A stretch of 63,691 nt of DNA, filler included, from an uncultured bacterium (GTDB lineage Bacteria; CAYUVA01), in the NCBI GenBank assembly GCA_964448115.1. It is 6 parts of 4 records of this genome, joined end to end, with 100 filler letters (N's around TTAATTAATTAA, not from the genome) between each part and the next. Parts side by side here need not be neighbours in the genome. Positions count along the whole stretch, not along the records: positions 1 to 15,920 come from CAYUVA010000012.1; 5 more parts are not named here. One strand, written 5' to 3'. Of this stretch, positions 1 through 59,872 are shown in pieces; within the stretch, counting starts at the first letter, position 1, and each line of letters opens with the position of its first letter. The notes under the pieces were generated by a model that was not told the origin of the DNA, ran no database searches, and worked only from the letters and a program-made list of their open reading frames with translations. The position numbers were made by a program, and so were the translations under genes.

Positions 1-1
1 C

Positions 2-937
2 TTCGAGAAGATCCAGACCATAGCCCGGGCAGATTCCACGGTGCTTATAACCGGGGAAAGCGGCACCGGTAAAGAACTAGTAGCCCGAGCAATACATAAG
101 CTGAGCACCAGGAGCAACCATCCATTCATCCCCATCAATTGCAGCGCCTTCCAGGAAACCCTTTTGGAAAGTGAGTTGTTCGGCTATGAGCAGGGTGCTT
201 TCACCGATGCCAGGTCAGCCAAGAAGGGGCTTTTTCTGAGTGCAAATGGGGGCACTTTTTTCTTCGACGAGATCGGTGATATGAGCCTTTCGCTGCAGGC
301 GAAACTACTGCGAGTGCTCGAGGACAGAAAGGTGCGCCCCTTGGGGAGCAATACCGAATTCAAGGTCGATATCAGGGTGCTATCCGCTACCAACAAGAAT
401 CTGAGTGAGGAGATCGAGAAGGGAAGATTTCGTAATGATCTGTTCTTTCGACTTAATGTAGTGGAATTGAATATACCCCCCTTGAGGGAGCGCAAGGATG
501 ATATACTATTCTTGGCAGACCACTTTCTTGACGAGTTTAACTCGAGATTTAACAAGAAGATCTTGGGCTTCAAGCCGGAGGCGGAAAAAGCAATGCTGCA
601 ATATGACTGGCCGGGGAATGTGCGCGAGCTGAAGAATCTAGTGGAAAGAACCGTGCTACTGGGCAGTGAAAATGGATATATCCACTTGTCAAATTTCCCC
701 CCGGAATTACAAAGTTTGTCAAAGGACAACCGGGTGATAAATGAACTCAACTACAATAAGGCAAAAGATAAAGTACTTTGGGATTTTCATAACGATTATT
801 TCAGCTATCTTTTAAGAAAAAATCGTGGTAATGTCTCTCGCAGCGCGTTTGAAGCTGGAATAGATCGCAGCAGCCTACAAAGATTGCTAAAAAAATATGG
901 GATCAAAAGCTCCAACTATCGCAAACAAAGGCAATAA
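2..937 (+). CDS. Sigma-54-dependent transcriptional activator (NtrC/Fis family), 5' truncated by window edge
   Basis: Walker A GESGTGKE, GAFTDA loop, DEIG Walker B, WPGNVREL, C-terminal Fis-type HTH; frame is open from position 2. Confidence 0.95.
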   Translation, partial: FEKIQTIARADSTVLITGESGTGKELVARAIHKLSTRSNHPFIPINCSAFQETLLESELFGYEQGAFTDARSAKKGLFLSANGGTFFFDEIGDMSLSLQAKLLRVLEDRKVRPLGSNTEFKVDIRVLSATNKNLSEEIEKGRFRNDLFFRLNVVELNIPPLRERKDDILFLADHFLDEFNSRFNKKILGFKPEAEKAMLQYDWPGNVRELKNLVERTVLLGSENGYIHLSNFPPELQSLSKDNRVINELNYNKAKDKVLWDFHNDYFSYLLRKNRGNVSRSAFEAGIDRSSLQRLLKKYGIKSSNYRKQRQ

Positions 938-965
938 TGGTCTATTTGCCGGTTGTCATTCTTGT

Positions 966-985
966 GTGTTGCAGTTTTGCAACAC
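966..985. promoter_or_regulatory. Palindromic candidate enhancer (UAS) for a sigma-54 activator
   Basis: GTGTTGCA-GTTT-TGCAACAC perfect 8-bp inverted repeat ~210 nt upstream of a -24/-12 promoter; near copy at 1576-1595. Confidence 0.6.
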
Positions 986-1193
986 TATTTTCAGGGAACC
1001 AAATTGGAGCATAGATGCATCAACCTGGTTAGACAATGGACAATAAATATTTCTTGGCAGTGGATATTAGAACAAGTGAGATTGAAAAAACGAGCTGCAT
1101 CACCAAGCATCATATTTTTATCTCGTTGATATTTAATGATAATTTACCGATATCGGTATTTTCGGTACTATAAAATGGCTTTTTCATCTTTTT

Positions 1194-1209
1194 TGGCATA
1201 ATGCTTGCA
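1194..1209 (+). promoter_or_regulatory. Sigma-54 (-24/-12) promoter
   Basis: TGGCATAATGCTTGCA matches TGGCAC-N5-TTGCW with exact GG/GC spacing; IHF-like site TATCTCGTTGATA at 1119-1131. Confidence 0.8.
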
Positions 1210-1219
1210 TATTTTCTTA

Positions 1220-1500
1220 ATGGAAGTTAAAAGACAAAATGGTTCTTTGAGAGGCGAAAGGTAGTTATGGTTAGAAGGCGATCATTCGGGGGTTTCGTCC
1301 TCATTAGAAAGTTGCCTGACAACTGGTCGTCTTATCCACAAAGACGATGCTTCTCCATCTAAGATTCTGATCCTCCAATCAGAAACTTTTTCACGCCACA
1401 CACAAGCCTTCTCACTGTCAATCGGTAACCTCCAGCCGATTGATTATTCTACCTCCAATCCTCTGACCCGGTGGGCGCCCGGGCGCCCACCGGCTCCTCA
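1220..1500 (+). ncRNA. Candidate sigma-54-dependent structured sRNA with repeated CCUCCA loops
   Basis: No long ORF after the promoter; hairpins at 1327-1347, 1365-1384, 1418-1443 and a 26-bp perfect palindrome at 1468-1493; ends approximate. Confidence 0.55.
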
Positions 1501-1673
1501 CCAAAACTAGGCAGCACAAGTTAAACAGAATATCCAAGGCACTCTTATTTCCCCATAAATAGTCTATTTCTGTTAGTGTTGCAGGTTTGCTGCACCTATT
1601 TTAAGCTCGGATAGGGGATTTCTTAAAGGTAAGCAGGGGGTATGCAGCAGATCGATCACATAAGTCGGGAAGC

Positions 1674-4040
1674 TCAAAGAAACTCGTACATAGCAAGGTC
1701 TAGCATGAGTTCCTCAAAGGTCTGGTAGCGCTCGCTTCTTTTCTTCTTGATGCACTTTAATATCACATCGCAGATATCCTTGGGCAGCTCCGGCTTGATC
1801 TTACAGGGGTCGATGGGGGTGCTCTCATGGAAGTCGAAGATGCCGTACTCGACCTTCGGATTCTGCTCCTTGTGGGGAAACTCGCCGGTTAACATCTCGT
1901 AAAGTATGAGACCGAGCGAGTAGATATCGCTCCATTCCCCGAACGAAGATTCAACCGAGATATGCTCTGGGGACATGTATTTAGGCGTGCCGGTAACCTT
2001 CTCCCGGCTTACCGGGGGGAGTTTCACGAACCGGGAAAGCTCGAAATCGATGAGCTTGGCTTTGAAGTCATCTTTAGTAACCATGATATTTGCCGGTTTC
2101 AGGTCCGCATGTAGGATTCCTTTTTTCTTTAGTTCGACCATGGCTTTACAGATATAGTTGGCTATGGAGATCCTCTGTGGAATGCTCAAGCCTTTGAAGG
2201 TGGCTGTTTTCATGAAGACCTCGAGGTCCCAGCCATCGACAAACTCCATACGGATGCAGTTCAAGCCCTTGAACTGAAATATCTCAAAGATGGTAACTAC
2301 ATACTCGTTTTTAAATCCTAGAAGCCCCATTGCCGATCTCTTGAATCGTTTTAATATTATCTCATCGTTATTATGCTCAGGTTTCAATATCTTTAGTGCT
2401 TCTATGCGAGGGATGCTGTGGTTTCTTATCTTGTATATATAGGTGAATCCTCCCTGCCCGATCTTTTCCAGGATCTCATAGTGTTCACCGATCATGAATC
2501 CTTTTTGAAGCGACTCTGAGCTGATAACTCGCAGTGATCTTGTGGAGAGGAGTTGATTTTCAAGCGGGTTGAGCTTCTTTTTTACCGGCTCGTATCCAGA
2601 AATGCTGATAAAGCCCTGCGCGTCTATTTGACAGACGATCTCCAGCTCAAAAGTATCATCATCCTTTTTTATGTAGGCGATATGGTTGTATTCCCCCACT
2701 TTCTCTTTACCGGCTGGGTGGTGTGGATTTGCCTGATAGATGAAGAATTCGCCGTTGAAGTCCTTGAGAACCGGTACCGTAACTCGGGCAGTATATGGAA
2801 TCGGCTGGTTGCAAGGAACGATGGAGATAAAGTCGCTCTGCGCAGTCTTGATAAAGGTCTCATGGGGGAATATCTCGAATATCTTGATCTCTTTGGATAA
2901 CATCTGAATATCTCCGGAGGCGATGCCGAGACCGTAGATGATGATATGCCCCGGTGTGGCTCCCTTGACGGTGGCGATATCGAAGTACTCGTTCATTATT
3001 TTCTTTATACTGCTTTTATTAGCCATCCCGCCCGCAATAAATAAGGCTTCTATATCATTGGGTGAAAGGTTTAGCCTTTTCAATAATTCCATGAAGCTGC
3101 TGATGCTCTTTTTAATAAGCGGCTCCATAAGTCTGTCGAGTTCTTCAGCGCTTAGATCCGCGATCAGGGCAGTCGGCTTCTTGTTTACCATTGAGATATA
3201 GGGAAGCTCTATATGCGAGACCGAGAAATTAGTAAGCTCCATCTTGACTCGTTGCGCCTCGCTAAGCAATCTTTGCAGAACCATTGGTGTTATATTGAGC
3301 GCTTTTTTATGGTTTTCCTGGTATTTTTTTGCCATCCAGTTGGCAAGGATCAGATCGACCGCATCTCCGCCCAGTTCGGTCTTTTCTTTGTGTGCGATTA
3401 TTTCGAGTATATTATCCCTGATCTCTGCTATGGAGATACGAAGTGCAGTAGCTCCCCAATCCCACACAGCTATCCGTTCGGTGGCATTTGTCTTGAAGGC
3501 ATAAAAGGCAGCAGCCGCGGTCGTACTATTGATGATGGCTTTGAGCCTAAGCCCTAGTTCATTCAGGATTGTGCTAAGCTCGCTGCGCAGCTTGGAGTTG
3601 AAGCTGAATGGAACGCCGACTACGGCAGTAGAGATCTGGTCGCCGATCTCCTGTTCAGCTAGCATCTTGATCTCTTTGATCATAGATTGAAGGAGTTGGG
3701 CGGGATGAAAGACCTCGCCCTCGATCTCAAATAGTAGGTTTCCCTCCAGATCCTCCTTGAGGCTGTAGGGGACTCTATCTTTCCACCATTGGATGTATTC
3801 AGAGCCAAGAGGTTTGCCCCAAAAGTTGATAAATGTATTGATCGTGTTCGCTGGATTCATCAGGTACTTGGACTTGGCTACCTCCCCGACCGTCAACTGA
3901 CGATTTTTGTCAATAAAGACGAAAGAGGGGAAGCCGAAGGTGCCATTATAGTTTATGACCTCTCGGTAAGCGCGATTCTTTATTATAGCAGCCTTGCAGA
4001 GCTTAGAGCCTATGTCGATCAGCAGTACAGGTTCCATCAT
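1674..4040 (-). CDS. Hsp70/DnaK-like domain fused to C-terminal Ser/Thr protein kinase
   Basis: N-terminal IDIGS, AVVGVP, STTAAAAFY, LGGDAVD (Hsp70 NBD); C-terminal GQGGF, ALKILK, HADLKPAN, GTPKYMSPE. Confidence 0.85.
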   Translation of the reverse strand: MMEPVLLIDIGSKLCKAAIIKNRAYREVINYNGTFGFPSFVFIDKNRQLTVGEVAKSKYLMNPANTINTFINFWGKPLGSEYIQWWKDRVPYSLKEDLEGNLLFEIEGEVFHPAQLLQSMIKEIKMLAEQEIGDQISTAVVGVPFSFNSKLRSELSTILNELGLRLKAIINSTTAAAAFYAFKTNATERIAVWDWGATALRISIAEIRDNILEIIAHKEKTELGGDAVDLILANWMAKKYQENHKKALNITPMVLQRLLSEAQRVKMELTNFSVSHIELPYISMVNKKPTALIADLSAEELDRLMEPLIKKSISSFMELLKRLNLSPNDIEALFIAGGMANKSSIKKIMNEYFDIATVKGATPGHIIIYGLGIASGDIQMLSKEIKIFEIFPHETFIKTAQSDFISIVPCNQPIPYTARVTVPVLKDFNGEFFIYQANPHHPAGKEKVGEYNHIAYIKKDDDTFELEIVCQIDAQGFISISGYEPVKKKLNPLENQLLSTRSLRVISSESLQKGFMIGEHYEILEKIGQGGFTYIYKIRNHSIPRIEALKILKPEHNNDEIILKRFKRSAMGLLGFKNEYVVTIFEIFQFKGLNCIRMEFVDGWDLEVFMKTATFKGLSIPQRISIANYICKAMVELKKKGILHADLKPANIMVTKDDFKAKLIDFELSRFVKLPPVSREKVTGTPKYMSPEHISVESSFGEWSDIYSLGLILYEMLTGEFPHKEQNPKVEYGIFDFHESTPIDPCKIKPELPKDICDVILKCIKKKRSERYQTFEELMLDLAMYEFL

Positions 4041-4210
4041 ATATATTAGTAAGTTACAGGTTTCTTTATAGCAAATGTCATCCTAAACTGCTATGAGTTT
4101 TCCATAATCTTCCATGTTTACATACTAGTAAGATGCAGTTAATCCTTCAAGAAGATGCCGTCGCCTCATGATCCTTGACATTAAAGGCAATGCTTGATTA
4201 AGATGCAGTT

Positions 4211-5005
4211 GTGATCATGAAGTCCAATTATCATAGCAAACTTAGCCGAGGGTGCATTGTACGACCCTTGTTTTTCCTGTTTTCCTTTATCTGTCTTTTC
4301 TTGATGGGATGCGAAAACTATCACGGGACCATAGAGGGGCAGGTTACGCAACACCAGGTCAAGGAGAACGATATCATAGTTCATCCCTTTGGTTTGCGAG
4401 TTGAAGCCAAGGCATTGAAGGATGATGAGCGCGCCTTTGACTATACGGACCATAAGGGCAGATACCGCATTGAGAACGCCGGGTTCGGATTAAATCAAGT
4501 AACCGTCTCCGGCAAAGGATATTTCACCACCTCCACCTATATCGATGTTCGCAAGGATACCCTTCATATTCATGACTTCGTGGTGCGCAAGGTGCCGGAT
4601 AGAAAGGCGATGGGGCTTTATGTCCTGGTTGAGGATGCCTATAGTAAGGAGCCTATATCCGGCGCCCAGGTAGCGCTTTATCAGCATATTGGTTATGGCT
4701 ATGTTTACCAGGACACCAGGGCGACCAATGAATACGGTTATGCGAGGTTCTGGGAGGGATTGCCCACCTGGCTGAAGAACCCCTTTGATATTATTGGAGC
4801 CAAGCTGGTCGGTCTGCCCAATACCATGTCCATCGATGAATACACCATCCTGCTTATGAAGGTAGAGGTAGCCGCTGCTGGATATATCAATACCGATAAG
4901 ATCTTCATGATAACCTATAATACCCCCAACCCAATGCTAGTTACCATGCAGATGCTCACGCCTGGAAACGGTGATGAGGATGATGGCGAGATGGGGGGAT
5001 CTTAG
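4211..5005 (+). CDS. Putative lipoprotein with carboxypeptidase-regulatory-like (CnaB/transthyretin-like) beta domains
   Basis: Lipobox LMGC; two TDxxGxY / TNEYGYA-type beta-sandwich repeats. Confidence 0.6.
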   Translation: MIMKSNYHSKLSRGCIVRPLFFLFSFICLFLMGCENYHGTIEGQVTQHQVKENDIIVHPFGLRVEAKALKDDERAFDYTDHKGRYRIENAGFGLNQVTVSGKGYFTTSTYIDVRKDTLHIHDFVVRKVPDRKAMGLYVLVEDAYSKEPISGAQVALYQHIGYGYVYQDTRATNEYGYARFWEGLPTWLKNPFDIIGAKLVGLPNTMSIDEYTILLMKVEVAAAGYINTDKIFMITYNTPNPMLVTMQMLTPGNGDEDDGEMGGS

Positions 5006-6663
5006 GCTTTTTTATGTCGGTTAAGCAGTCTTTTGACTCTGGGATTCTCTTTCTCCACGGAGAGCACTTTGGAGCAGTATGATTCCATCAGTCTTTCCCG
5101 GATGGTCTCCAGGTAGGTATCTATTTGCTTATTATCCGGCATCTCCTCTTGGAGATTTAGCAGCCTCTTGGTCGCCTCGACATACTTACCACCTAGTATG
5201 AGTTTATCCACCAGAGGTAGCACTTTTTTTAGGGATTCCTGCTCAGAATCCACTTTGCTTACCCTTGCTGCCTTGTTATATGCTTTTACGGTACTGGTGT
5301 CTATCTTGGCGGGTTTATAGCCATCTTTAGGGATACTTTCTATGATCTCGAAGATCTGGTTGCTCATAAGCTGATATGATTCCTGGTTTGTTATCAGGAC
5401 ATCATGAGTCAACAGGTTCTTGGCGACCAATTTCAGCAACAGGCTCTGACGCTGGGTTATGAAGATAAAGGGGATGCGATGCAGGTTTCTTTGTTCTCTT
5501 ACCCCTTGTAATTGGGGGAATTGTTTAATGGTAGTAAGTGATAGTTCATAGATGACTGCCCGGGGGAGTGCTTTTTGCATGGTGCGTAATAGCATCTCCT
5601 CGGAGTTTACCAGGGTGATATTAAACCCTTTTGATGACAAGGAATTCTCCAGGATGGTAAATCCTATATCCCTTGCCACCTCAACATCAACGGCAATAAT
5701 CAGGTAATTGCTCTGCACTATCGGGGGGAGTTTCTTTGTTTTGATCATCTCGACAGGTATTGATTTGGGACTTTTTCTCTCTCTTGGCAAGATCCTCACA
5801 GCCCTCTTTTCTTGTTTATCTAGTCTCAATTTCTCCTTGATCGCAGATAGGTCTTCCTTGATCTCATTAGCGGATTGGTACCTGAGTAGAGGGTCTTTGT
5901 GGAGCATCTTTTCGATGATTTCATCGAACCTGGAAGGCAATGAATAATTGACCGATGTTGGTGGTGTATGTTGTTCGCTGCTTATCTGCAATAGTGTCTC
6001 TGCGGGATCTTCACTGATGAATGGGTGGATGCCGACTGCCATCTCATAAAGGACTATTCCAAGAGAAAAAAGATCGGAGCGATGATCCTCAGCGCCCTGA
6101 AGGCGCTCTGGTGCGATATAGTTGATGGTGCCGGTAACAGTAAAGCTGGTATTGCTCAGGGCTTGTAGTTCCTGGCTTATCCTGGCAAGCCCGAAATCGG
6201 TGATCTTCACTTGATTTTCCTTATTTATAAGTATATTACCCGGCTTGATGTCTCTATGTATTATTCCCATGCTATGCGCATAAAATAGGGCATCGCACAA
6301 CTGCATTCCATAATCCAAAGCCATCTCGAAGCTTATGCCTTTCTCGGAGGTGAGCAGATTCAGTAGGCTCTCACCCTCGACATACTCAAGAACGATATAG
6401 GGTCTATCCTCCCATTCGCCGGCATCCAAGGTCGTTACGATGTTGGGGTGGAATAACCTGCCGGAGGTCTTGGCTTCCCGCTCCATGATCTCAATGATCT
6501 TTCGCGAGTAATCATCGATATTTTTGCCCAAAAGGTTATCCAGCCTAATGGTTTTAAGAGCCACTGGGCGCTGGATTGTGGGGTCGAATCCCTTGTAAAC
6601 GACTCCCATGCCACCCTCGCCGATGACTCCCTCTATTATATATCTGCCAATTTTCTCGGTCAT
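5002..6663 (-). CDS. Hanks-type Ser/Thr kinase with C-terminal pseudo-receiver domain
   Basis: GEGGMGVVY, VALK, HRDIKPGN, DFG, GTINYIAPE; CheY-like segment with VIYE in place of the phospho-Asp. Confidence 0.9.
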   Translation of the reverse strand: MTEKIGRYIIEGVIGEGGMGVVYKGFDPTIQRPVALKTIRLDNLLGKNIDDYSRKIIEIMEREAKTSGRLFHPNIVTTLDAGEWEDRPYIVLEYVEGESLLNLLTSEKGISFEMALDYGMQLCDALFYAHSMGIIHRDIKPGNILINKENQVKITDFGLARISQELQALSNTSFTVTGTINYIAPERLQGAEDHRSDLFSLGIVLYEMAVGIHPFISEDPAETLLQISSEQHTPPTSVNYSLPSRFDEIIEKMLHKDPLLRYQSANEIKEDLSAIKEKLRLDKQEKRAVRILPRERKSPKSIPVEMIKTKKLPPIVQSNYLIIAVDVEVARDIGFTILENSLSSKGFNITLVNSEEMLLRTMQKALPRAVIYELSLTTIKQFPQLQGVREQRNLHRIPFIFITQRQSLLLKLVAKNLLTHDVLITNQESYQLMSNQIFEIIESIPKDGYKPAKIDTSTVKAYNKAARVSKVDSEQESLKKVLPLVDKLILGGKYVEATKRLLNLQEEMPDNKQIDTYLETIRERLMESYCSKVLSVEKENPRVKRLLNRHKKA

Positions 6664-6780
6664 TATAAGATGATAATATCAGAAGGTTATAGTTATTACA
6701 AAGCCGGTCATGGCTATGATAGCTTGTTCCAAGCAAGTCGAAACTTCAAGCGGTGTTAGGAATTAATTGAAATAATTAAG

Positions 6781-6808
6781 TTGACAATGCACCTAATAAT
6801 AATAAAAT
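6781..6808 (+). promoter_or_regulatory. Candidate sigma-70 promoter of acyl-CoA dehydrogenase
   Basis: TTGACA-16 nt-TAAAAT. Confidence 0.45.
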
Positions 6809-6922
6809 ACGATCCTGGAATAGCTCCCTGGGATGATATTGCAAATCAAACCCAGTTCCCAAACGAGTTGATCTGATGATGGATATGAGCTTTAGAAACA
6901 ACAAAGTACTAAGGAGGAAATA

Positions 6923-8743
6923 ATGAGCGAAAGGGAATTTGTAAAGGGCGGGATGTTCCTGCTGGAACCAGCCGCGGTCAGACCTATCTTCACCAGGGAA
7001 GAGCTTAACGAAGAGCAGTTGATGATCGGAAAGACCGCCTGGGATTTCATCGAAAAGGAGATCATGCCCAGGTTGGATGAATTTGAGGATCACGACAAGA
7101 AAAGACCGCTCAACAAGGAGTATGTGCAAAAAGCCGGCGAACTGGGACTGCTGGCGGTCGATATCCCCGAGGAATACGGCGGCTTCGATATGGGCTTCAC
7201 TACCGGCATGTATGTAACCGAGAATGTCGCCCGCGCCAGCTCCTTTTCTGTCTCCATGATGGCACATAGCGGGATAGGGGTGCTGCCGATTAGGTTCTTC
7301 GGAAACAAGCTGCAAAAGGATAAGTACCTAGCCAAGCTCGCTTCGGGAGAGCTTATTGCTGCTTTTTGCCTTACCGAGGCTGCCACCGGGTCCGATGCGC
7401 TTGCCCTAAAGACAAAAGCGACCTTGAGCGAGGATGGCAAGCATTACATCCTAAATGGCGAGAAGATGTGGATAACCAACGGCGGCTTCGCTGATATATT
7501 CATCGTCTATGCCAGGGTGGATGATGACAAGAAGGTCTCTGCGTTTATCGTTGAGGGCGATAGCGAGGGCTTCACCAGGGGCAAGGAAGAGGATAAGATG
7601 GGAATAATGGGCTCATCTACTACCGCCCTACACTTCGACAATGTCAAAGTACCGGTGGAAAATATGCTCGGTGCCAGGGGCAAGGGGCACAAGAGCGCCT
7701 TCGGCATACTCGACATCGGTCGCTTCAAGCTCGGAGTCGGCTGCTACGGCGGATGCAAAGACCTTATAGCTACTACCGCTAAGTACGGCAACGAAAGAAA
7801 GCAGTTCGGCATGACGATAAACAGCTTTGGCATGATCCGAAGGAAGTATGCTGATATGGCAATGCGCATCTTCGCCCTGGAGAGCGAAGCCTACCGGACT
7901 TCGGACATGATGGATGTGGCAATGAAGACCCTGCCCCCGGAGAGCGAGGAAGGTTGGATCGATAAGGCTTATAAGATCCTTGAGATGTACAATGTCGAGG
8001 CATCTATCCTCAAGGTTTATGGCTCCGAGGTGCTCGATTTCGTGGTTGATGAATGCGTGCAGATCCACGGCGGATATGGCTACAGCGAGGAATACCCAAT
8101 CGCCAGGGCTTATCGCGATGCAAGGATAAACCGCATCTTCGAGGGAACCAATGAGATCAACCGCCTAGTCATTCCCGGGACCTTCTTCCGCAAGGTGATG
8201 AAGGGGGAGCTTGACTTCATGGGCGAACTAAACAAGGTGCTGGCTGAGATCAAACAGGATGCCATAAATAAAGAGCCAGCAGATGGACCTCTGGGCAGGG
8301 AGATCACCGCGGTCAATGTTGCAAAGAAGACCGCTATCTACACCTTCGGATGCATTGCCCAGAAGCACATGGCAAAGATGCAGGACAAGACCTTCATGCT
8401 CACCGAGTTCGAGTATCCGCTCGAGGGCATGGCGAACCTGGCTATCGATATATATGCAATGGATTCGGCGCTATGCCGTGCCATTCGCTTCATCGAGTTA
8501 AAAGGTGAAGAGCGTGGCGAGTATGTGAAACTGCTGGCACAGACCTTCATCTACCAGACGCTGCACAAGGTCTTTAACGATAGCAAACTTCTGCTAGCCG
8601 ATGTCGCCGATGGAGATCCAGAGAAGTGGCAGCAATACTCCAAGGCGCTGCACAGGCTATACTGGTTCTACCCGTATGACCTGGCAAAGGCAAGAGATAA
8701 GATCGCGCAGCGCATCATCGAAGAAGAGGGCTATTCACTGTAA
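6923..8743 (+). CDS. Acyl-CoA dehydrogenase (long form, FadE/VLCAD-like)
   Basis: AFCLTE..GSD, NGEKMWITNG, QIHGGYGY, RIFEGTNEI; SD AAGGAGG. Confidence 0.95.
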   Translation: MSEREFVKGGMFLLEPAAVRPIFTREELNEEQLMIGKTAWDFIEKEIMPRLDEFEDHDKKRPLNKEYVQKAGELGLLAVDIPEEYGGFDMGFTTGMYVTENVARASSFSVSMMAHSGIGVLPIRFFGNKLQKDKYLAKLASGELIAAFCLTEAATGSDALALKTKATLSEDGKHYILNGEKMWITNGGFADIFIVYARVDDDKKVSAFIVEGDSEGFTRGKEEDKMGIMGSSTTALHFDNVKVPVENMLGARGKGHKSAFGILDIGRFKLGVGCYGGCKDLIATTAKYGNERKQFGMTINSFGMIRRKYADMAMRIFALESEAYRTSDMMDVAMKTLPPESEEGWIDKAYKILEMYNVEASILKVYGSEVLDFVVDECVQIHGGYGYSEEYPIARAYRDARINRIFEGTNEINRLVIPGTFFRKVMKGELDFMGELNKVLAEIKQDAINKEPADGPLGREITAVNVAKKTAIYTFGCIAQKHMAKMQDKTFMLTEFEYPLEGMANLAIDIYAMDSALCRAIRFIELKGEERGEYVKLLAQTFIYQTLHKVFNDSKLLLADVADGDPEKWQQYSKALHRLYWFYPYDLAKARDKIAQRIIEEEGYSL

Positions 8744-8768
8744 GCCCTAGGCTAAAGAGAAGGAATCC

Positions 8769-8795
8769 AGGGGCGATTCGTTTCGCCCCTTTTTT
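8769..8795 (+). terminator. Rho-independent terminator
   Basis: AGGGGCGA/TCGCCCCT stem followed by T tract, between convergent genes. Confidence 0.75.
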
Positions 8796-11700
8796 ATTCG
8801 CTGAAATTTAGTGGCGCTTTAAGGACGGTAACTATCTGCTCGATCAGTCTTTCCATGTTGAAAAGTTTATCCCTGGCAAGGAACCTAACCAAGGGATTGT
8901 GCAGCAGGGCATTCAACTCCTCATCTTCGCTCAACATCGAAACCAGGACAGTAGGTATGAGCAGCCGCTTGTTTTCAAGCTCTTGCATGACCTCCAAGCC
9001 GCTGGTTCCCTGGAGCACGAAATCGAGCAGTTGAACATCAGGTTCCCTGGTCGATATCAGCTCTGGTACAGCATCACCTTTGTCATTTAAGATCGTTTCT
9101 GCTGGCAATCTAAGCAAAACTTCCTTGAAAAATTCACGATTTTCTGGAACATCGTCGGTAACCAAGATGGTCTTAAGGTTCGATCTTAATAATTTAAGGG
9201 TCAGTATATCCTGCATCAACTGCTGGTTTGAGGGGAGTCTTGTATATCGTCTGAACGCGTACCTGTATCTTGGTGGCAGCTTTTCGCCATGTTTGTGAAT
9301 GATGATAAGCCCGAGGCGATGGCGCGGCTCAGTAGCTAACCGTTCATCCAATCGGTTAAGGCTATCAGGTTCAATAAGTGATGTGTCAAGCAACGCCCAC
9401 TTTAGATCCTCGCCGAAGATTATCTCCTCCAGATCTTCACCAGCCTTAACAAACCTGGCTTTCACTTTATCTGATAAGGTTTGTAAAACAAGGTGAACCT
9501 TGGGGTTCATTGAGGCAACTAGAATAGGTTCATCCGAAGCCATATAAGGTATCCTTCGTTGGAGCATCGCTTTTCTTACCTCTTTTACGGACTCTGAATG
9601 GAAATGTTCACCCAGCTTTTTCTTTAGCCAATCCATCTTGAAGGGTTTAATGATAAACTGGGAGGCTCCTTGGGAAATTACCTTGTTTTTTATGTTATTG
9701 GATAGTTGTCCACTCATTACCCATATCGTAGTTTCCCTGAATGGTAAGTGTTCCCTGATCTTTTTCAATAACTCGATCCCCTTGCTATCGGAGAGGTTGA
9801 TATCCAGCAGAATAAGATCGATCCTCTCCGAGGGCTGAAATGCAATCGCCTCCGACAGGCTGTAAACCTGCAAGATATTGAAATGTGCGGAGAGGGTAAA
9901 TTTTAATAGATTCTGCAGCTCTGTATTATCCTCGATTATAAGGATATTAGGTTTTCTATGTATCTTGGATACGACTTTAGTTGTGATTGGTGTTTGCATC
10001 TCAGCAGAATCGCTAACCGGCTCATCCATGGATGAGTCTCCCTGCTCATCGTGCTCGAATGTCTGGGTAACCTTGATATATTTCAGAGGCTCCTCGACCA
10101 GGATCTGTTTGATATCCAGTTCCTTATCAATAATTCCATATTTAACTGCCAGATGGATGGTTTCTCCGAGGAGCTTCTTATCGAAATTGATGATATCCTC
10201 CCATGGCGTTTTCTTATAGTAATGAAGACATTGTTCCAGTATTTCAGCAGGGACCAGAATGATACCTGATAGATCTTGAATAACCTGTTTATCGTTTTCA
10301 TGCAGCTTTTTATATCCCTTGAGTATTTCGTTGACTAGGAGCCGGGTAATGCTATTATTAGCCCGGAGGTAGTCAGCGGTAATGAACAGTCCATGGTTAT
10401 AGCCTTGCGTCTCCAAGCCCTCGAGCGTAATCTGCTTGCCGATCCCCTCGCTCAGGGCGATGCGACCCCAGACACAATCAAGGATGGCAAGGTCAACCTT
10501 TTTCCTGTCCAGCATATCGAAGATCTGCGGTTCAGTAGCATATTCAACAGTAAGGTCATTATGTAAGTTTAGTTTCAATAATTTTAGATATCTGTTCAGA
10601 TTCAAATTGCAGCTTGAGTATCTAGACCCTACTACTATCGTTTTATTTCGCCAGAAACTAGGGGCAGCAGGCAATGGAATCCTAGTTTGCTGCAGTGTGT
10701 TACTTACCGTTATGCATTCATTCTGGTAGAAAGGATATATCAGCTTTAATGCCGAGCCATTCGATATCAGGTGAAATCCTTGCAGCAGCGGCATTATGAT
10801 TACATCCGCTTTATTTTTTGAAATCCAATTGGCAATGGTCTGCTCATCTACATACTCGCGGGTATCTAAAATAATATTCTCCTTGTAGGAAACCTCTGAT
10901 GTAAATAAATTTGATAAGGGAAATATTTCCAGGCTTTTCTTCATTGCAATCCTGCATTTGCTAGGGGTATCGATCGGTTTATCTGCCAAAGGCAATGTAA
11001 AGTAGAATGTGCTTCCCTTGCCCGGCTTACTTTTTACGGCAATCATACCCTTATGTTTCTCAATTATAATTTTTGATATTGCTAGTCCAAGCCCAGAGCC
11101 CTGTATGGCGGATGCTTGTTTTAATAATGGCGAGACCCTAAAAAATGGCTCGAAGATCCGATCCTGGAAGTGAGCAGGAATCCCGATGCCGTTGTCGGTA
11201 ACCGAGACCTTGACATGTTCACCAGATTCCTTTGCCATTACGCTTACTGAGCCATTTTCGCTAGCATATTTGATGCCGTTGGAGATCAAATTATAAAGGA
11301 CTTGTCTTATTCTAAGGGGATCTGCCATTGCTTGCAGGCGCTCGCTGGTCGGCATTGCTCGTAATGTGATGTTAGAAACGTCCGCCTCTGCCTTTAGATC
11401 GTTTACCGCCTCGGTAATAAGCTCGTTTACATCGACCAATTCGGGCACAATCTTGAGACCATCGCTCTTCATTCTAGCCAGATCGAGCATATCATCGACC
11501 ATGCGTCGCAAGGTCGCCATCTGACGATCTATGGACTCGAAGATATTATGATCTTCATCTGTGAGCCTGGCGTATAGGCTTGACTTAAGTATATCCAGGT
11601 AGCCGAAGATATTGGTCAACGGGGTCCTGAACTCGTGTGAGATCATTGCTGGTAGCTCTTCGATTGCCTTTTGTCGCTTCACATGGGATGAGATGTTCTC

Positions 11701-14445
11701 CAGGGCTATGAGCAATCCCTCAAATCTTTTATTCTCTCCACATAGTCCGACTATCTGAGCCTTCAGATATTGGGGCTTGTCTCTGGGGTCATCCTTGAAC
11801 TCGAACCTTACTATTTCCTTTTGTTGTGGGTTATCACGCACCTTCAGGATCGCGCTTTTAAACAAAGCAGCCCCTGGGATATCCAGTATATTGCTGTGCA
11901 TGATATGCCTATCTTGGACTCCCAGGTAATGTCTTGCATGATTATTTATACTTTTGATCAATAGGTTAGCGCCGCAGATGACCAAACCACTAGGAAAAAG
12001 ATCAACCAAATGCAACAAAGCGTTGTGCTCATCAATATACCTTTTCTGCAAGAGTCTCATGGAGTCGGATTGTTGCTGAAGAAGTTTATTGAGCTTAAGT
12101 TGACTCAAGGTTCTGCTTGATTCTTGATATATAAGGCGCATATTACGAATATCCTCTATATCCGGCTTGTAATTAGCGTCGTAAATCGCCACCAGCAATG
12201 ACAATAGTTGTTTTTTAGTCGCTAGAGGAGCTAAGAATAATGCATTTGACTCGCCAGCAGGGAAATGCTTTTGCAGGTGTTTTAAAAAAGCCCTTAATCC
12301 CAACGATTGGAATTCATCTTGTAACTGGTTAGCTTTGCCAGAAAGCAGGATCTGCTGATCTTGACTTAGTATCTCCAGATATCCATACCCCTCGACGGTT
12401 TCTGGCTCTATGCCGATGAAATGTATCAGCTGATAAGCCTCCAGTGATTCATTGTAATCGTAGGCTAGCATGCACCTGGTGGGAAACAGGTTATTCAAGG
12501 TTTTGAGCAATTGTGAGTAAAGCTCTGCCTCAACGGTAACCTCGTTGAATTTGTCAAGCATTTTGCGGATTTCAGCATGTTTTGTCTGCATGAGGTGAAG
12601 GGTATCCTGGAGTGCCTTTCTTTCAGTTAAAGGTTTTAATGTAACAATAATGCATTCATTTTTCTCTATCTCGATTTTTTTCCAAGATACTTTAAGCAAA
12701 ATAGGCTGATCAGCAGCATTATAAAATGATTCCTCAAACCCTCCCTCTGCGTTACCGGATAACCTATCCCAGGGATTATCACGACCAGGCTTATAAAGGA
12801 GGGTTTTTATCCTGTTTCCTTTGCAATTACTCGTATCCAATGAGATCAGTCGTGCTGCCTTTTGGTTGATCACCTCGACCCTTAGCTTTTGGTTCACTAT
12901 CACCGCCGCGATGGGGATCGTCTCGACCAAGTCGCTAAGAGATAAGTCAGCACTGCCGGCATCGATCTTAAGCTCCCTTATGATTAGAGCTAAGCGAGCT
13001 TTTTGCCTTGTCTGCATTGAGGACAAAGCGGTCTGCACCCTGATAAAATCTTGATTTCTTCCCTTAAGATCAGCGATGAACGGCATGCCTGCGCCTGTTG
13101 GATTATTGATAGCCTCCCGAAGTAGTTTGCAACCTTCTTTGCTGAACAGGTAATCAACCGGAAAACCCTCGACCTCGGATGGCTGATAGCCAGTTAGCTC
13201 AAGAAATCTATCATTGACCTTGATTATTCTATTATCAGGGGGATTTAATAATATTATCCCAAATAGGGGATTGTTGAATATAAGATCAAGATCTCGCTCG
13301 CTCTCGATACAAGTATTTTGCAGCCTCGCAAGCTCGCTCAGCGTCTGCTGGGAAAACTCGGTAAACCGGGACAAGATGCCCCGCGAGGGAAGTGGCACCG
13401 AATCAACAGGTTGCTGCTTGTTTCTCAGGGCGCCCAGGTAGTTATAGAGCGATTTTATCGGCTTTGCCACGCTGGTGGATAATAGGAATGCGGATATTAT
13501 GCCAACGAGAAACAATACTGAGATCCATAAATAATTTATATTCTCTGTATTATAGTTAAGTAAAATAGCTGCTGCTAATAAAAGCCCCATAACGACCACC
13601 AGGTTTCTGAAGGTAAGCGAGCTTTTGAACAATCGCATGGGACTGGAGGGGAGGGATTTATCATATTCACCAAAGACAAGCAGGCATAATAGGTAAAGAT
13701 ATAACAACAGGGATAAATCTACTAAAAAATAAAGAATGAAAAGATTGCTGATCAAGTATCCCAATGTGAGAAAGCTGCCTGATACATTGATCAGACCTAA
13801 ATAAAAAATAGTCTTCCCCTTGGAATGCTCAGTTGTATGGCGCTCTTGTTGCCGGGCATAATCATAGCCTAGATAGCTAATGCTTCCCCAGACCACTATC
13901 CAATAGAAGACGAGCAACATTAGATATGCATAACTTGATTTATCGAACTCAAGGAAAACTTCTTTAGAAACGGGGATGGTCTTTAATGGAAAATAGATCG
14001 AGAATATAATTAAAATAAACGAGGATAGACCTAGAACCAAAGAGCCTTTGAACGAATATACATAATCGATTATCGAAGTACAGTATCGAAAGACAAAACA
14101 AAGATGTATTATGATGGCAGCCGTGAAAAGATGGTAGGATAGCACTGATATGTCGGTATTACTGTAAAGATATGCCAGATTGCTCAGCAGCAAGGTACAC
14201 CCAAAAGCGGATGTTGCCAATAGCGGAGGAAATGCTTTTGGAATTGTGCTTTCCTTGGCGGCAAGCTGTGGTTGCAGCACCCTGGCAGCAAGGCACAAAG
14301 GTACAAAGGCGATCAGCGAATCGATAAAAAGAATGGATATCGTATGAATGCCTTCCATCGCTTTACCTTGAACCTGCTTGTTAATAATATAGCAAACTCC
14401 TTTACTTATACCACGAGAGTAGATATAAGAAAATTCTTGATTCAA
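8794..14445 (-). CDS. Giant membrane hybrid histidine kinase (multi-TM, PAS/GAF-like, HisKA-HATPase, solute-binding-like domain, multiple REC)
   Basis: SHEFRTPL H-box, NLISNGIKY, DNGIGIP, GSGLGL; REC motifs ILIIEDN..LLDINL..KPF and ILVTDD..LLDFVL; start codon uncertain. Confidence 0.88.
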   Translation of the reverse strand: MNQEFSYIYSRGISKGVCYIINKQVQGKAMEGIHTISILFIDSLIAFVPLCLAARVLQPQLAAKESTIPKAFPPLLATSAFGCTLLLSNLAYLYSNTDISVLSYHLFTAAIIIHLCFVFRYCTSIIDYVYSFKGSLVLGLSSFILIIFSIYFPLKTIPVSKEVFLEFDKSSYAYLMLLVFYWIVVWGSISYLGYDYARQQERHTTEHSKGKTIFYLGLINVSGSFLTLGYLISNLFILYFLVDLSLLLYLYLLCLLVFGEYDKSLPSSPMRLFKSSLTFRNLVVVMGLLLAAAILLNYNTENINYLWISVLFLVGIISAFLLSTSVAKPIKSLYNYLGALRNKQQPVDSVPLPSRGILSRFTEFSQQTLSELARLQNTCIESERDLDLIFNNPLFGIILLNPPDNRIIKVNDRFLELTGYQPSEVEGFPVDYLFSKEGCKLLREAINNPTGAGMPFIADLKGRNQDFIRVQTALSSMQTRQKARLALIIRELKIDAGSADLSLSDLVETIPIAAVIVNQKLRVEVINQKAARLISLDTSNCKGNRIKTLLYKPGRDNPWDRLSGNAEGGFEESFYNAADQPILLKVSWKKIEIEKNECIIVTLKPLTERKALQDTLHLMQTKHAEIRKMLDKFNEVTVEAELYSQLLKTLNNLFPTRCMLAYDYNESLEAYQLIHFIGIEPETVEGYGYLEILSQDQQILLSGKANQLQDEFQSLGLRAFLKHLQKHFPAGESNALFLAPLATKKQLLSLLVAIYDANYKPDIEDIRNMRLIYQESSRTLSQLKLNKLLQQQSDSMRLLQKRYIDEHNALLHLVDLFPSGLVICGANLLIKSINNHARHYLGVQDRHIMHSNILDIPGAALFKSAILKVRDNPQQKEIVRFEFKDDPRDKPQYLKAQIVGLCGENKRFEGLLIALENISSHVKRQKAIEELPAMISHEFRTPLTNIFGYLDILKSSLYARLTDEDHNIFESIDRQMATLRRMVDDMLDLARMKSDGLKIVPELVDVNELITEAVNDLKAEADVSNITLRAMPTSERLQAMADPLRIRQVLYNLISNGIKYASENGSVSVMAKESGEHVKVSVTDNGIGIPAHFQDRIFEPFFRVSPLLKQASAIQGSGLGLAISKIIIEKHKGMIAVKSKPGKGSTFYFTLPLADKPIDTPSKCRIAMKKSLEIFPLSNLFTSEVSYKENIILDTREYVDEQTIANWISKNKADVIIMPLLQGFHLISNGSALKLIYPFYQNECITVSNTLQQTRIPLPAAPSFWRNKTIVVGSRYSSCNLNLNRYLKLLKLNLHNDLTVEYATEPQIFDMLDRKKVDLAILDCVWGRIALSEGIGKQITLEGLETQGYNHGLFITADYLRANNSITRLLVNEILKGYKKLHENDKQVIQDLSGIILVPAEILEQCLHYYKKTPWEDIINFDKKLLGETIHLAVKYGIIDKELDIKQILVEEPLKYIKVTQTFEHDEQGDSSMDEPVSDSAEMQTPITTKVVSKIHRKPNILIIEDNTELQNLLKFTLSAHFNILQVYSLSEAIAFQPSERIDLILLDINLSDSKGIELLKKIREHLPFRETTIWVMSGQLSNNIKNKVISQGASQFIIKPFKMDWLKKKLGEHFHSESVKEVRKAMLQRRIPYMASDEPILVASMNPKVHLVLQTLSDKVKARFVKAGEDLEEIIFGEDLKWALLDTSLIEPDSLNRLDERLATEPRHRLGLIIIHKHGEKLPPRYRYAFRRYTRLPSNQQLMQDILTLKLLRSNLKTILVTDDVPENREFFKEVLLRLPAETILNDKGDAVPELISTREPDVQLLDFVLQGTSGLEVMQELENKRLLIPTVLVSMLSEDEELNALLHNPLVRFLARDKLFNMERLIEQIVTVLKAPLNFSE

Positions 14446-14532
14446 AGGATATTTGATATCTGCTCAAGATTACGATAGCGAGCTTCATTATCAAGGTGGG
14501 AGACTAAATGATATACACAACTGCTGTGCAAC

Positions 14533-15920
14533 ATGAAAAAGGATACTAGGATAAGATATATTTTGCCAGGTTTTTTCTTTGCCTTGTATTTGTCAAGTGG
14601 CATGGGACATCTTAACGAGCTGCCCCTTGGTGAGCATTCCTGGAAGCAATTCGATGATCTTTGCATTGCCAGAGAGTATAGCATCGGCGCACGATTCTTC
14701 TATCCGCAGGTGCCCTGGGGCGGACCTGGCGGCGGTACAATCGGCAGCGAGTTCCCGATTTACACATACTTAGTCGGTGCATTATGGAGGATAGCAGGCG
14801 AGAATGTATTCATCCCAAGGATATTATGCTTAGTTTTCACATCCTTGACAGCGGCGATCCTTTGCCTGCTAGCCATTGATTTGTTTGGCATAGTTGCAGC
14901 CATTTTTACATCGCTGGCATTCATCTTTTGCCCGTTAAACTATTACTTCGGCAAGGCGATCTCGATAGAGCCGTTGATGATATTGACCTCCGTGGCATCA
15001 TTTTATTTTTTTTTACGATGTCGCTTAGATCCAAACAGAAATTCACTGGTTGCTGCTGTTTTTCTGCTTAGCCTAACTGCCTTACTTAAGCTCCCCAACT
15101 TGTTTTTATTGCTGCCGGCGCTGATAGTACTAAAAGGCAAGGATGATATCTACTCACTGATAAAAAAGCCTTGCTTGTACGCCATCTTGCTCGTAGTCAT
15201 TACTCCTGCGTTCTTCTGGTATCGCCACGCCTTCTGGATAGCAGATAATATGGAGCCTGGTGTTATATTTGGCAGGGATCTCTGGTTTCGCTTCGATATG
15301 TTGCTTAAGCCCGGGTTCTACCTTCAAGTTTTCGACCTGGTGAACCGCAAGGGCTTGACTCCGGCTGGGCTGATATTGATGATAATTGGAATACTTCCAT
15401 TCTCTAAGCCGAATAATGAGTTTGGATTTAAGATTGTACGATACTGGCTGCTCGGTTTCATGGTTTACCTGATTATTGGTGCAAAGGGCTGTTTTATCCA
15501 TACTTACTACTTCCTTCCCTTGATCCCGCCAGCGTGCCTTGCAATAGGTATAGGGGCTGAGAGGCTGTGGAATCTGCAAAAACAGGCTAAAGTAAATATT
15601 GTACTAAGAGTGATGGTCATCTTGGCATTCGGTACCCTTATCTATAAAGGTGCGGTGCGCGGGGAGCGATGGTTCGATATTCAGCAAGACAAGCAGCATG
15701 TTTTCGATGCCGCTTATTTTGCAAAGGAGTTCATTCCGAAAGATTCTGCCGTTGCCTTGTTAGAATATCCACGCCTGACCAATATCCCCGCATTCTTCTA
15801 TCTGTCTGATACTAGCGGAATGGTCTTCACCCCGGAGAACTTCAAGCCTGAACAGCTCATCGAGTTGGCAGCATTGGGATACGAGTACCTGGTCGCTGCC
15901 ATACAACAAGGCAAATCATC
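14533..15920 (+). CDS. GT-C membrane glycosyltransferase (ArnT/GT39-like), 3' truncated by gap
   Basis: Polytopic membrane protein, HSWKQFDD acidic loop, EFPIY, YYFLPLIPP. Confidence 0.75.
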
Positions 15921-16020
15921 NNNNNNNNNNNNNNNNNNNNNNNNNNNNNNNNNNNNNNNNNNNNTTAATTAATTAANNNNNNNNNNNNNNNNNNNNNNNN
16001 NNNNNNNNNNNNNNNNNNNN
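15921..16020. other. Artificial contig linker (same at 24371-24470, 39221-39320, 43273-43372, 59637-59736)
   Basis: N runs flanking TTAATTAATTAA, which gives stops in all six frames. Confidence 0.99.
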
Positions 16021-24370: not shown

Positions 24371-24470
24371 NNNNNNNNNNNNNNNNNNNNNNNNNNNNNN
24401 NNNNNNNNNNNNNNTTAATTAATTAANNNNNNNNNNNNNNNNNNNNNNNNNNNNNNNNNNNNNNNNNNNN

Positions 24471-39220: not shown

Positions 39221-39380
39221 NNNNNNNNNNNNNNNNNNNNNNNNNNNNNNNNNNNNNNNNNNNNTTAATTAATTAANNNNNNNNNNNNNNNNNNNNNNNN
39301 NNNNNNNNNNNNNNNNNNNNCGGGTGTTATAAAAAGGGGCGAGCCGATATTTTTACCCCATCCGCTGGATTAGGTAAGCT

Positions 39381-43272: not shown

Positions 43273-43372
43273 NNNNNNNNNNNNNNNNNNNNNNNNNNNN
43301 NNNNNNNNNNNNNNNNTTAATTAATTAANNNNNNNNNNNNNNNNNNNNNNNNNNNNNNNNNNNNNNNNNNNN

Positions 43373-59588: not shown

Positions 59589-59872
59589 GAAGAATTGATT
59601 TAATTCGCATTGTGATGCTGTTAGAAATCGCCTCCTNNNNNNNNNNNNNNNNNNNNNNNNNNNNNNNNNNNNNNNNNNNNTTAATTAATTAANNNNNNNN
59701 NNNNNNNNNNNNNNNNNNNNNNNNNNNNNNNNNNNNATAGACCTCGTACATCCAGATTGTACTCCTCCAATAAGCCCTGCAACTTCCTGAACCTGATCGT
59801 TTAAATTTCATTGCGCTGTTGGGGTGGGTGTGTTAAGCTATAATGTGAAACTCTATTAAGGATCACTGAGCT

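Follow-up and report, generated by a model that had tools for sequence, protein, structure and literature searches.

What does a sigma-54 promoter transcribe when it lies behind the gene of a sigma-54 activator and no long open reading frame (ORF) follows it? This question is raised by a gap of 736 nucleotides (nt), 938-1673, between two convergent genes of an uncultured bacterium (assembly GCA_964448115.1; 3.98 Mb in 86 contigs, 94.45% complete, 48% G+C). All positions given without a contig are those of the window, the whole stretch of 63,691 nt that was analysed. Window positions 1-15920 are one contig (C12:71769-87688), the only one that bears the candidate RNA, and the rest of the window is made up of other contigs, with paired runs of N at 15921-16020, 24371-24470, 39221-39320, 43273-43372 and 59637-59736. 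A preliminary description of this DNA had reported a palindrome, an IHF-like site, a sigma-54 promoter and several hairpins with CCUCCA loops in the gap, and had proposed a small RNA (sRNA) that blocks ribosome-binding sites. Direct inspection of the sequence and its repeats located the gap and every one of its elements where they had been placed. Our interpretation is a putative non-coding RNA of about 275-385 nt that depends on sigma-54 and on the neighbouring activator and carries exposed anti-Shine-Dalgarno loops, and we regard its chances as about even. It is built on the quality of the promoter, its link to the activator, the missing coding signal downstream and the exposure of the motif in the predicted folds.

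Promoter and activator

The promoter at 1194-1209 fits the consensus TGGCAYR-N4-TTGCW, and its GG-N10-GC spacing is exact. The genome encodes RpoN (Sigma54_DBD match of 209 bits, contig C4). The strict pattern TGGCA[CT]-N5-TTGC[AT] occurs at nine intergenic sites of this genome, compared with 0.49 +/- 0.81 in 300 block-permuted decoys (largest 7). Thus, approximately 95% of the strict intergenic sites are expected to be genuine, and the sigma-54 promoter of the preliminary description is upheld as one that is very likely to be functional. Eight of the nine sites precede an ORF of at least 67 amino acids (aa) on the same strand; six of these ORFs have at least 120 aa and start within 330 nt, and the other two have 92 and 67 aa. 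The site at 1194-1209 is the sole exception. Likewise, none of 49 strict sites of other loci was without an ORF of at least 50 aa within 350 nt, and the present site lacks one. The two small ORFs lie behind promoters at G000:C28:30564-30579 (minus strand, 92 aa) and G000:C49:7977-7992 (plus strand, 67 aa), the former sitting just past the gene of a 178-aa receiver-only response regulator.

The promoter very probably belongs to the adjacent activator. Sigma54_activat has 12 strong matches in the genome, and the activator directly upstream of the promoter is the only one among them whose gene is followed by a sigma-54-like site on its own strand within 900 nt. Homologues of the activator were collected from 80 loci on genome contigs and 80 on metagenome contigs, the best at 37-47% identity, and a sigma-54-like site was present somewhere in 70 of these 160 distant loci. 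In 32 loci that were inspected, the site typically lay 90-250 nt past the activator gene and drove protein genes, so that a target promoter behind the gene of its activator is a common layout. For example, ten of the loci (L028, L030, L034, L048, L050, L060, L073, L104, L135 and L142; approximately 4170-4800 with full flanks), labelled as Aminicenantes, ‘Eubacteriales’ or unclassified bacterium, have a sigma-54 promoter behind the homologous activator that drives a conserved 80-90-aa protein (...IIPWPD...KFLYY...IPI..F) and then a protein of 430-436 aa.

The activator is identified by the Pfam domains Response_reg, Sigma54_activat (2.1e-69) and AAA_lid_14, and its C-terminus gives a weak match to the Fis-type HTH_8 domain (19.1 bits versus a cut-off of 22). 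Its gene is preceded by methyltransferase and glycosyltransferase genes, and no histidine kinase gene adjoins it among the neighbouring genes inspected. A hybrid histidine kinase of 1883 aa is encoded 8 kb away at 8794-14445 on the minus strand, with PAS, HisKA and HATPase_c domains and two matched receiver-domain stretches, and is a possible partner of this orphan activator.

Three upstream sites were considered for the binding of regulators. First, the palindrome GTGTTGCA-GTTT-TGCAACAC at 966-985 had been described as an upstream activating sequence (UAS). The palindrome exists, but the role does not suit it as well as another: it most probably serves the activator gene as its intrinsic terminator, because it begins 28 nt past the stop codon, its 8-bp stem has -11.1 kcal/mol and UAUUUU comes next. 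A UAS shared with other promoters was also considered and rejected; TGTTGCA-N4-TGCAACA has one other exact copy in the genome (C13:18913), within coding sequence and away from any sigma-54 site. Secondly, the IHF-like site at 1119-1131 is present, but the weight given to it is not sustained. The window has 83 matches with one mismatch where 62 +/- 8 are expected by chance, which makes this one uninformative; the genome has five genes of the HU/IHF family. Third, a perfect 14-nt palindrome with a third half-site at 1145-1167 is a second candidate UAS, for the activator or for another regulator, the latter because a distance of 55-70 nt from the start is short for looping. Its exact palindrome is unique in the genome. 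Clustered TCGGTA half-sites lie upstream of this one alone among the nine intergenic sigma-54 sites, and one other site has a single TACCGA.

Predicted RNA and its termination

All six reading frames were inspected, and no frame piece of the gap downstream of the promoter has a Pfam match. The largest ORF with a start codon has 31 aa (MVRRRSFGG...) and a codon log-likelihood of -0.145 per codon, a value at or below that of 0.7% of 800 real gene starts and exceeded by 86% of 727 spurious antisense ORFs. Its Shine-Dalgarno-like AAGG is paired in the predicted fold, and the ORF is probably untranslated. A stop-free frame of 81 codons at 1265-1507 contains no ATG, GTG or TTG and scores -0.086 per codon (none of 939 real gene segments scored that low), and an open frame of this length arose in 347 of 2000 shuffles (17%). 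The earlier statement that the promoter points at no long ORF is consistent with these results. A decayed copy of the 3' half of the activator gene was considered and rejected: 995-1557 scored 21 against the activator and shuffles scored 21.8 +/- 2.3, and the best tblastn match had an expectation value (E) of 24.

The start of transcription is placed at 1219-1221 from promoter geometry, 12 nt past the C of the -12 element at 1208. From approximately 1220, the plus strand is predicted to fold at -110.3 kcal/mol (z = -3.2), and none of 100 shuffles folded as well. In both the minimum free energy (MFE) and centroid folds, three purine-rich segments near the 5' end pair with pyrimidine-rich partners, AGAGG with CCUCU at 1460-1464, AGGUAG with CUACCU at 1449-1454 and AGAAGGC with GCCUUCU at 1406-1412. 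These pairings close a multi-helix junction from which hairpins H1 and H2 project; 3' of the junction follow hairpin H3, the GC hairpin H4 and a 3' domain. H3 has eight Watson-Crick and two G-U pairs and carries CCUCCA at 1429-1434. In the loops of both H2 and H3, CCUCCA has an unpaired probability of 1.0. All hairpins, loops and motif copies of the preliminary description (Table 1), as well as the perfect GC palindrome, were recovered.

The clustering of the motif is unusual for this genome. At least three copies of CCTCCA within 100 nt occur at eight places on both strands, and the present locus is the only one of the eight outside ORFs of at least 100 aa. In addition, 62 hairpins in the genome have a perfect stem of at least 6 bp, a loop of at most 12 nt and CCTCC in the loop. 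The two at the present locus are 57 nt apart, and no other locus has two within 100 nt; by our own estimate, a pair of this kind would arise somewhere with a probability of about 0.05.

The predicted transcript could end at either of two places. H4 at 1468-1493 is unique in the genome and is the most GC-rich (0.92) of its 96 perfect palindromes with arms of at least 10 bp. Further downstream, a terminator scan matched 1580-1594, within a hairpin with a U run that spans 1580-1602. This second terminator is part of a module, AAT(G/A)GTCTATTT ... GTGTTGCAG(T/G)TTTGC..CAC ... CTATTTT, that is common to the end of the activator gene and the end of the predicted transcript. The local alignment of 936-994 with 1558-1605 scores 33, while 1000 shuffles scored 14.3 +/- 2.2 (largest 27) and none reached 33. 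The two copies comprise the direct repeats D1, D3 and D5, whose starts are 610-622 nt apart and which bracket the promoter and the RNA body. Since this diverged copy recurs at 1558-1605, the putative RNA gene is bracketed by a duplicated terminator, which is a trace of its origin.

Table 1. Features of the candidate locus and its flanking genes in window coordinates; RNA features are predictions.
Feature	Position	Strand	Remarks
NtrC-type response regulator / sigma-54 activator, 468 aa, 3' part	1..937	+	Gene start 470 nt before the window (L001:94)
Hairpin GUGUUGCA-GUUU-UGCAACAC, then UAUUUU	966..991	+	Terminator scan; 8-bp stem, -11.1 kcal/mol
IHF-like site TATCAACGAGATA	1119..1131	-	Motif match; one mismatch to WATCAANNNNTTR
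TACCGA-TA-TCGGTA-TTT-TCGGTA	1145..1167		Perfect 14-nt palindrome plus third half-site; about 55-70 nt upstream of predicted start
Sigma-54 promoter TGGCATAATGCTTGCA (TGGCATA-ATGC-TTGCA)	1194..1209	+	GG at -24, GC at -12
Predicted primary transcript, about 383 nt	1220..1602	+	About 275 nt if ending at the GC hairpin near 1496
Purine-rich 5' segments AGAGG (1250-1254), AGGUAG (1259-1264), AGAAGGC (1273-1279)	1250..1279	+	MFE and centroid folds; inverted repeat I13
31-aa ORF	1267..1362	+	Largest ORF with a start codon; no Pfam match
Hairpin H1, 8-bp stem, loop AUCCACA	1326..1348	+	-8.6 kcal/mol
UCUCCA	1352	+	Unpaired probability 0.82
Hairpin H2, 11-bp stem with one mismatch, loop CCUCCA (1372-1377)	1361..1388	+	-7.6 kcal/mol; inverted repeat I8
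Hairpin H3, loop UAACCUCCAG at 1418-1443 or (U)AACCUCCA(G)	1417..1444	+	-13.5 kcal/mol
Linker CUACCUCCAAUCCUCUGA with third CCUCCA (1452-1457)	1449..1466	+	Half paired to 5' purine-rich segments in the ensemble
Hairpin H4, perfect 26-nt GC palindrome	1468..1493		-26.5 kcal/mol; no U tract on either strand
Terminator module T5, AATAGTCTATTT ... GTGTTGCAGGTTTGCTGCAC CTATTTTAAG	1558..1605	+	Diverged direct copy of 936-994
HSP70-protein kinase fusion gene, 788 aa	1674-4040	-	Downstream convergent neighbour

The convergent neighbour encodes an HSP70-like ATPase (residues 8-489) fused to a Ser/Thr protein kinase domain (residues 521-774), and a second Ser/Thr kinase is encoded close by at 5002-6663 on the minus strand. 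Other palindromes of the genome were recorded as well. G/C-rich palindromes of 22-24 nt, CCCTCCCCGTGAACGGGGAGGG and variants, form arrays at C1:71706-71913, C17:19012-19256, C46:20540-20953, C5:113767-113830 and C66:3938-4820. The C1 array has a 62-nt period with identical flanks and looks like clustered regularly interspaced short palindromic repeats (CRISPR) or repetitive extragenic palindromic (REP) elements; the other arrays are spaced differently. The perfect palindrome AACTGTTTCAGCGCTGAAACAGTT occurs in multiple copies (C8:51752-51785, C2:168678-168707, C34:290-317, C68:3083-3106, C69:28-49 and C72:7026-7047), with the related palindromes AACTGTTGCGACGCCGCAACAGTT on C4, C14 and C21 and AAAATGTTCCATGTGGAACATTTT on C26, C28 and C55, and a 22-nt variant of the latter on C58. 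Palindromes of this second type may be operator sites or the ends of mobile elements.

From these features we infer a transcript, both of its ends, a mechanism that acts in trans and all of its targets, as follows. The orphan NtrC-type regulator, once phosphorylated, would activate the RpoN holoenzyme at 1194-1209, and transcription from about 1220 would yield a non-coding RNA of approximately 275-385 nt. The 3' end of this RNA would be formed by the GC hairpin near 1496 or by the terminator at 1580-1602, a duplicate of the activator's own. The closed junction would hold out two loops with CCUCCA, which is complementary to the Shine-Dalgarno core UGGAGG, and a third CCUCCA in the linker would be partly masked by the 5' purine-rich segments. 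The RNA would then pair in trans with the ribosome-binding sites of mRNAs and so repress their translation, with no need of Hfq or CsrA.

The organism does use Shine-Dalgarno sequences, with GGAG upstream of 21.9% of 1733 long ORFs compared with a background of 6.3%. Hfq was not found in the 94%-complete assembly, and the CsrA family (PF02599) had no match in the 94.45%-complete genome, although an incomplete assembly may lack a gene that the organism has. Duplex and k-mer searches of the translation start regions singled out no target or regulon. Duplexes of RNAduplex with a 151-nt query were discarded as meaningless long-loop structures. The blocking of ribosome-binding sites thus remains as conjectural as it was in the preliminary description, and we consider a trans-acting anti-Shine-Dalgarno mechanism possible though doubtful. 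A broader proposal would make the RNA the first representative of a new sRNA family, in a lineage that is an orphan at the level of the phylum and seems to have neither Hfq nor CsrA. A single two-component activator would drive it through sigma-54, and the RNA, of approximately 380 nt, would mimic the anti-Shine-Dalgarno tail of 16S rRNA with several CCUCCA motifs and serve as a tunable, chaperone-independent general repressor of strongly Shine-Dalgarno-dependent mRNAs. In such an RNA two CCUCCA motifs would always be exposed and one would be masked by a purine-rich decoy and freed on refolding or processing, the cuckoo design having been convergently reinvented under enhancer control. This broader proposal is unlikely.

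Several results weigh against the proposed RNA. First, the region is single copy in its own genome, and no orthologous locus or related DNA was found in the genomes and metagenomes searched. Secondly, a search of sequencing runs found the region in three DNA runs of one sample, which is probably the source, and in no RNA run. Third, the minus strand also folds well (z = -2.5, with none of 100 shuffles as good), and the stems of the hairpins cannot tell the strands apart because all three are Watson-Crick. Fourth, the T5 terminator is weak, at -7.8 kcal/mol and with four U. The loop of H2 has only 6 nt, and the third CCUCCA is half buried, with an unpaired probability of 0.5, because it pairs with the AAGG ahead of the 31-aa ORF. 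Lastly, the mechanism gains little from complementarity. The assembly has no 16S gene from which the organism's own anti-Shine-Dalgarno sequence could be read. Perfect matches of 9-12 nt to translation start regions were not above those of shuffled queries (62 versus a mean of 55.8 for k=9 and 18 versus 14.2 for k=10). Segment 1446-1466 forms 238 duplexes of -14 kcal/mol or lower in start regions and 115 in random genomic DNA, and shuffled queries give 65-188 such duplexes, a modest enrichment.

The absence of relatives is to be seen with the position of the organism. Judged by the sequences available for comparison, its lineage is very isolated, because it is the sole genome of its phylum and no activator homologue exceeds 46% identity: a search for its phylum among available genomes returned only the genome itself, and the best non-self match of the activator among 5.8 billion protein clusters was 45-46% identical. 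Among 41 genomes (its own and 40 kin of the ‘same domain’), the DNA search gave three matches of 26-36 nt (E 0.0015-0.005), which are noise. Contigs of the three DNA runs matched the window without any difference over 1-1378 and 1350-4100, and none of them came from a diverged relative. Rfam cmscan had no match at the gathering score in the whole window, in agreement with the possibly new family of the preliminary description, and the four matches at E up to 10 in 850-1750 were all irrelevant and far below their cut-offs.

Alternative readings of the locus

Two improbable alternatives survive best. One of them accepts the promoter as real and holds that the act of transcription, or an antisense product, regulates the HSP70-kinase gene through interference or duplex formation. 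The kinase gene lacks an evident intrinsic terminator and its mRNA may thus run leftwards through 1673-1450, which would make the sigma-54 transcript perfectly complementary to the 3' untranslated region (UTR) of this mRNA, and transcription that leaks through 1580-1602 would enter the kinase gene. The convergent arrangement of the genes and the weakness of the T5 terminator agree with this explanation, as do the absence of a U tract from the GC hairpin on either strand and the position of the sole terminator-like match on the minus strand, the palindrome at 1158-1145, far past the kinase stop codon. However, a terminator-like hairpin stands between the RNA body and the kinase gene, the sequencing runs found contain no transcript support, and regulation of this kind would leave both the CCUCCA in two loops and the clustering of the motif unexplained.

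The other, to which we also give a low probability, is that there is no functional RNA. The promoter would be silent or a relic, and the hairpins would act at the level of DNA or be due to chance, as terminators, protein-binding palindromes or remains of a lost sigma-54-dependent gene. Neither expression nor conservation speaks for an RNA, the duplication of the terminator module attests to a rearrangement of the region, and the startless 81-codon frame could be a relic. Against these points stand the decoy comparison, by which hardly any of the strict intergenic sites should be spurious, and a fold z-score and motif clustering above chance. In addition, the interior of the region (995-1557) is no more similar to the activator gene than its shuffles are, and the open frame has no Pfam match, non-coding codon usage and a length that 17% of the shuffles reproduce.

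A peptide product is quite unlikely. The transcript would be the mRNA of the basic 31-aa peptide, or an RNA with a dual function, and the downstream CCUCC would exert anti-Shine-Dalgarno control in cis. The AAGG lies 5 nt ahead of the ATG, both the MFE and the centroid fold pair it with CUACCU of the third CCUCCA copy, and two other sigma-54 promoters of the genome drive the proteins of 92 and 67 aa noted above. The codon usage of the ORF is nevertheless poorer than that of nearly all real gene starts and of most antisense ORFs, it has no Pfam match, and it spans only a quarter of the transcript.

Lastly, a functional minus strand, which the preliminary description had raised as a GGA-loop sponge of the CsrB/RsmZ type and which might instead be the 3' UTR of the kinase mRNA, is very improbable: its fold, its loops UGGAGG and CUGGAGGUUA and a weak sigma-70-like site at 1626-1598 (-) favor it, but no CsrA was found, which disfavors a CsrB/RsmZ function, no Rfam model of that type matched even at E up to 10, there are only three or four GGA motifs, the one sigma-70-like match falls below the 2.0 of shuffles and yields no convincing minus-strand promoter, and it is the plus strand that has the strong promoter and both of the terminators with U tracts.

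Relation to known RNAs

The candidate RNA belongs to none of the Pxr, CrcZ and cuckoo families: Rfam gives no match, both the motif and the sizes of the loops are different, and neither Hfq nor CsrA was found. The RsaE/RoxS sRNAs of Firmicutes have C-rich loops. The candidate resembles these in having several loops with a short C-rich motif and differs in motif, promoter type and phylogeny, and it is not homologous to them. The pair of Qrr and LuxO is a further parallel. At present the locus comprises a well-supported promoter and a plausible putative RNA, and by itself it bears on no open question.

RNAIII, likewise of Firmicutes, has several hairpin loops with UCCC that target ribosome-binding sites (PMC4615179); the candidate differs from it in the same respects. 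The cuckoo or alpha-r14 RNAs of alphaproteobacteria (CcsR1-4, NfeR1) have two to four adjacent hairpins, loops of 9-27 nt that carry CCUCCUCCC, and folds free of multiloops (PMC4615179, PMC10746234). The candidate shares with them adjacent hairpin loops with a pyrimidine anti-Shine-Dalgarno motif and the proposed pairing with ribosome-binding sites. However, its motif is CCUCCA, in two of three loops and in the linker, and the ultraconserved CCUCCUCCC is absent from its sequence. Its loops have 6 and 8-10 nt, a multi-helix junction is predicted, and promoter type and lineage differ.

The layout with a sigma-54-dependent sRNA gene behind an activator gene, which the preliminary description had taken as precedent, is borne out for both of the systems that it named. 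In Pseudomonas, crcZ lies immediately downstream of cbrB and depends on CbrB and RpoN (PMC5113210). The order of genes is the same here. However, CrcZ sequesters Hfq/Crc, whereas Hfq was not found in this genome and the candidate has no Rfam match. In addition, read-through from the activator gene followed by processing, as for cbrB-crcZ, is less likely here because a good terminator lies between the activator gene and the RNA.

In Myxococcus, pxr lies behind nla19 with a spacer of 262 nt and its own sigma-54 promoter, and several stem-loops are predicted (PMC5568312). The likeness to the present locus is in the RNA gene directly after an NtrC-type regulator gene on the same strand, with a sigma-54 promoter of its own, and in the spacer, which here is 256 nt from stop codon to promoter; both RNAs have multiple stem-loops by prediction. 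Pxr has 108 nt and the candidate approximately 275-385 nt, the CCUCCA loops are a feature of the candidate, and its lineage is unrelated and without known paralogues or orthologues of the RNA. If the interpretation is true, the locus would offer a handle on what the orphan response regulator controls, and both the layout of enhancer-binding protein and sigma-54 sRNA and the design of RNAs with anti-Shine-Dalgarno loops would extend to an isolated uncultured lineage without detectable Hfq or CsrA; this would argue that both designs arise repeatedly.

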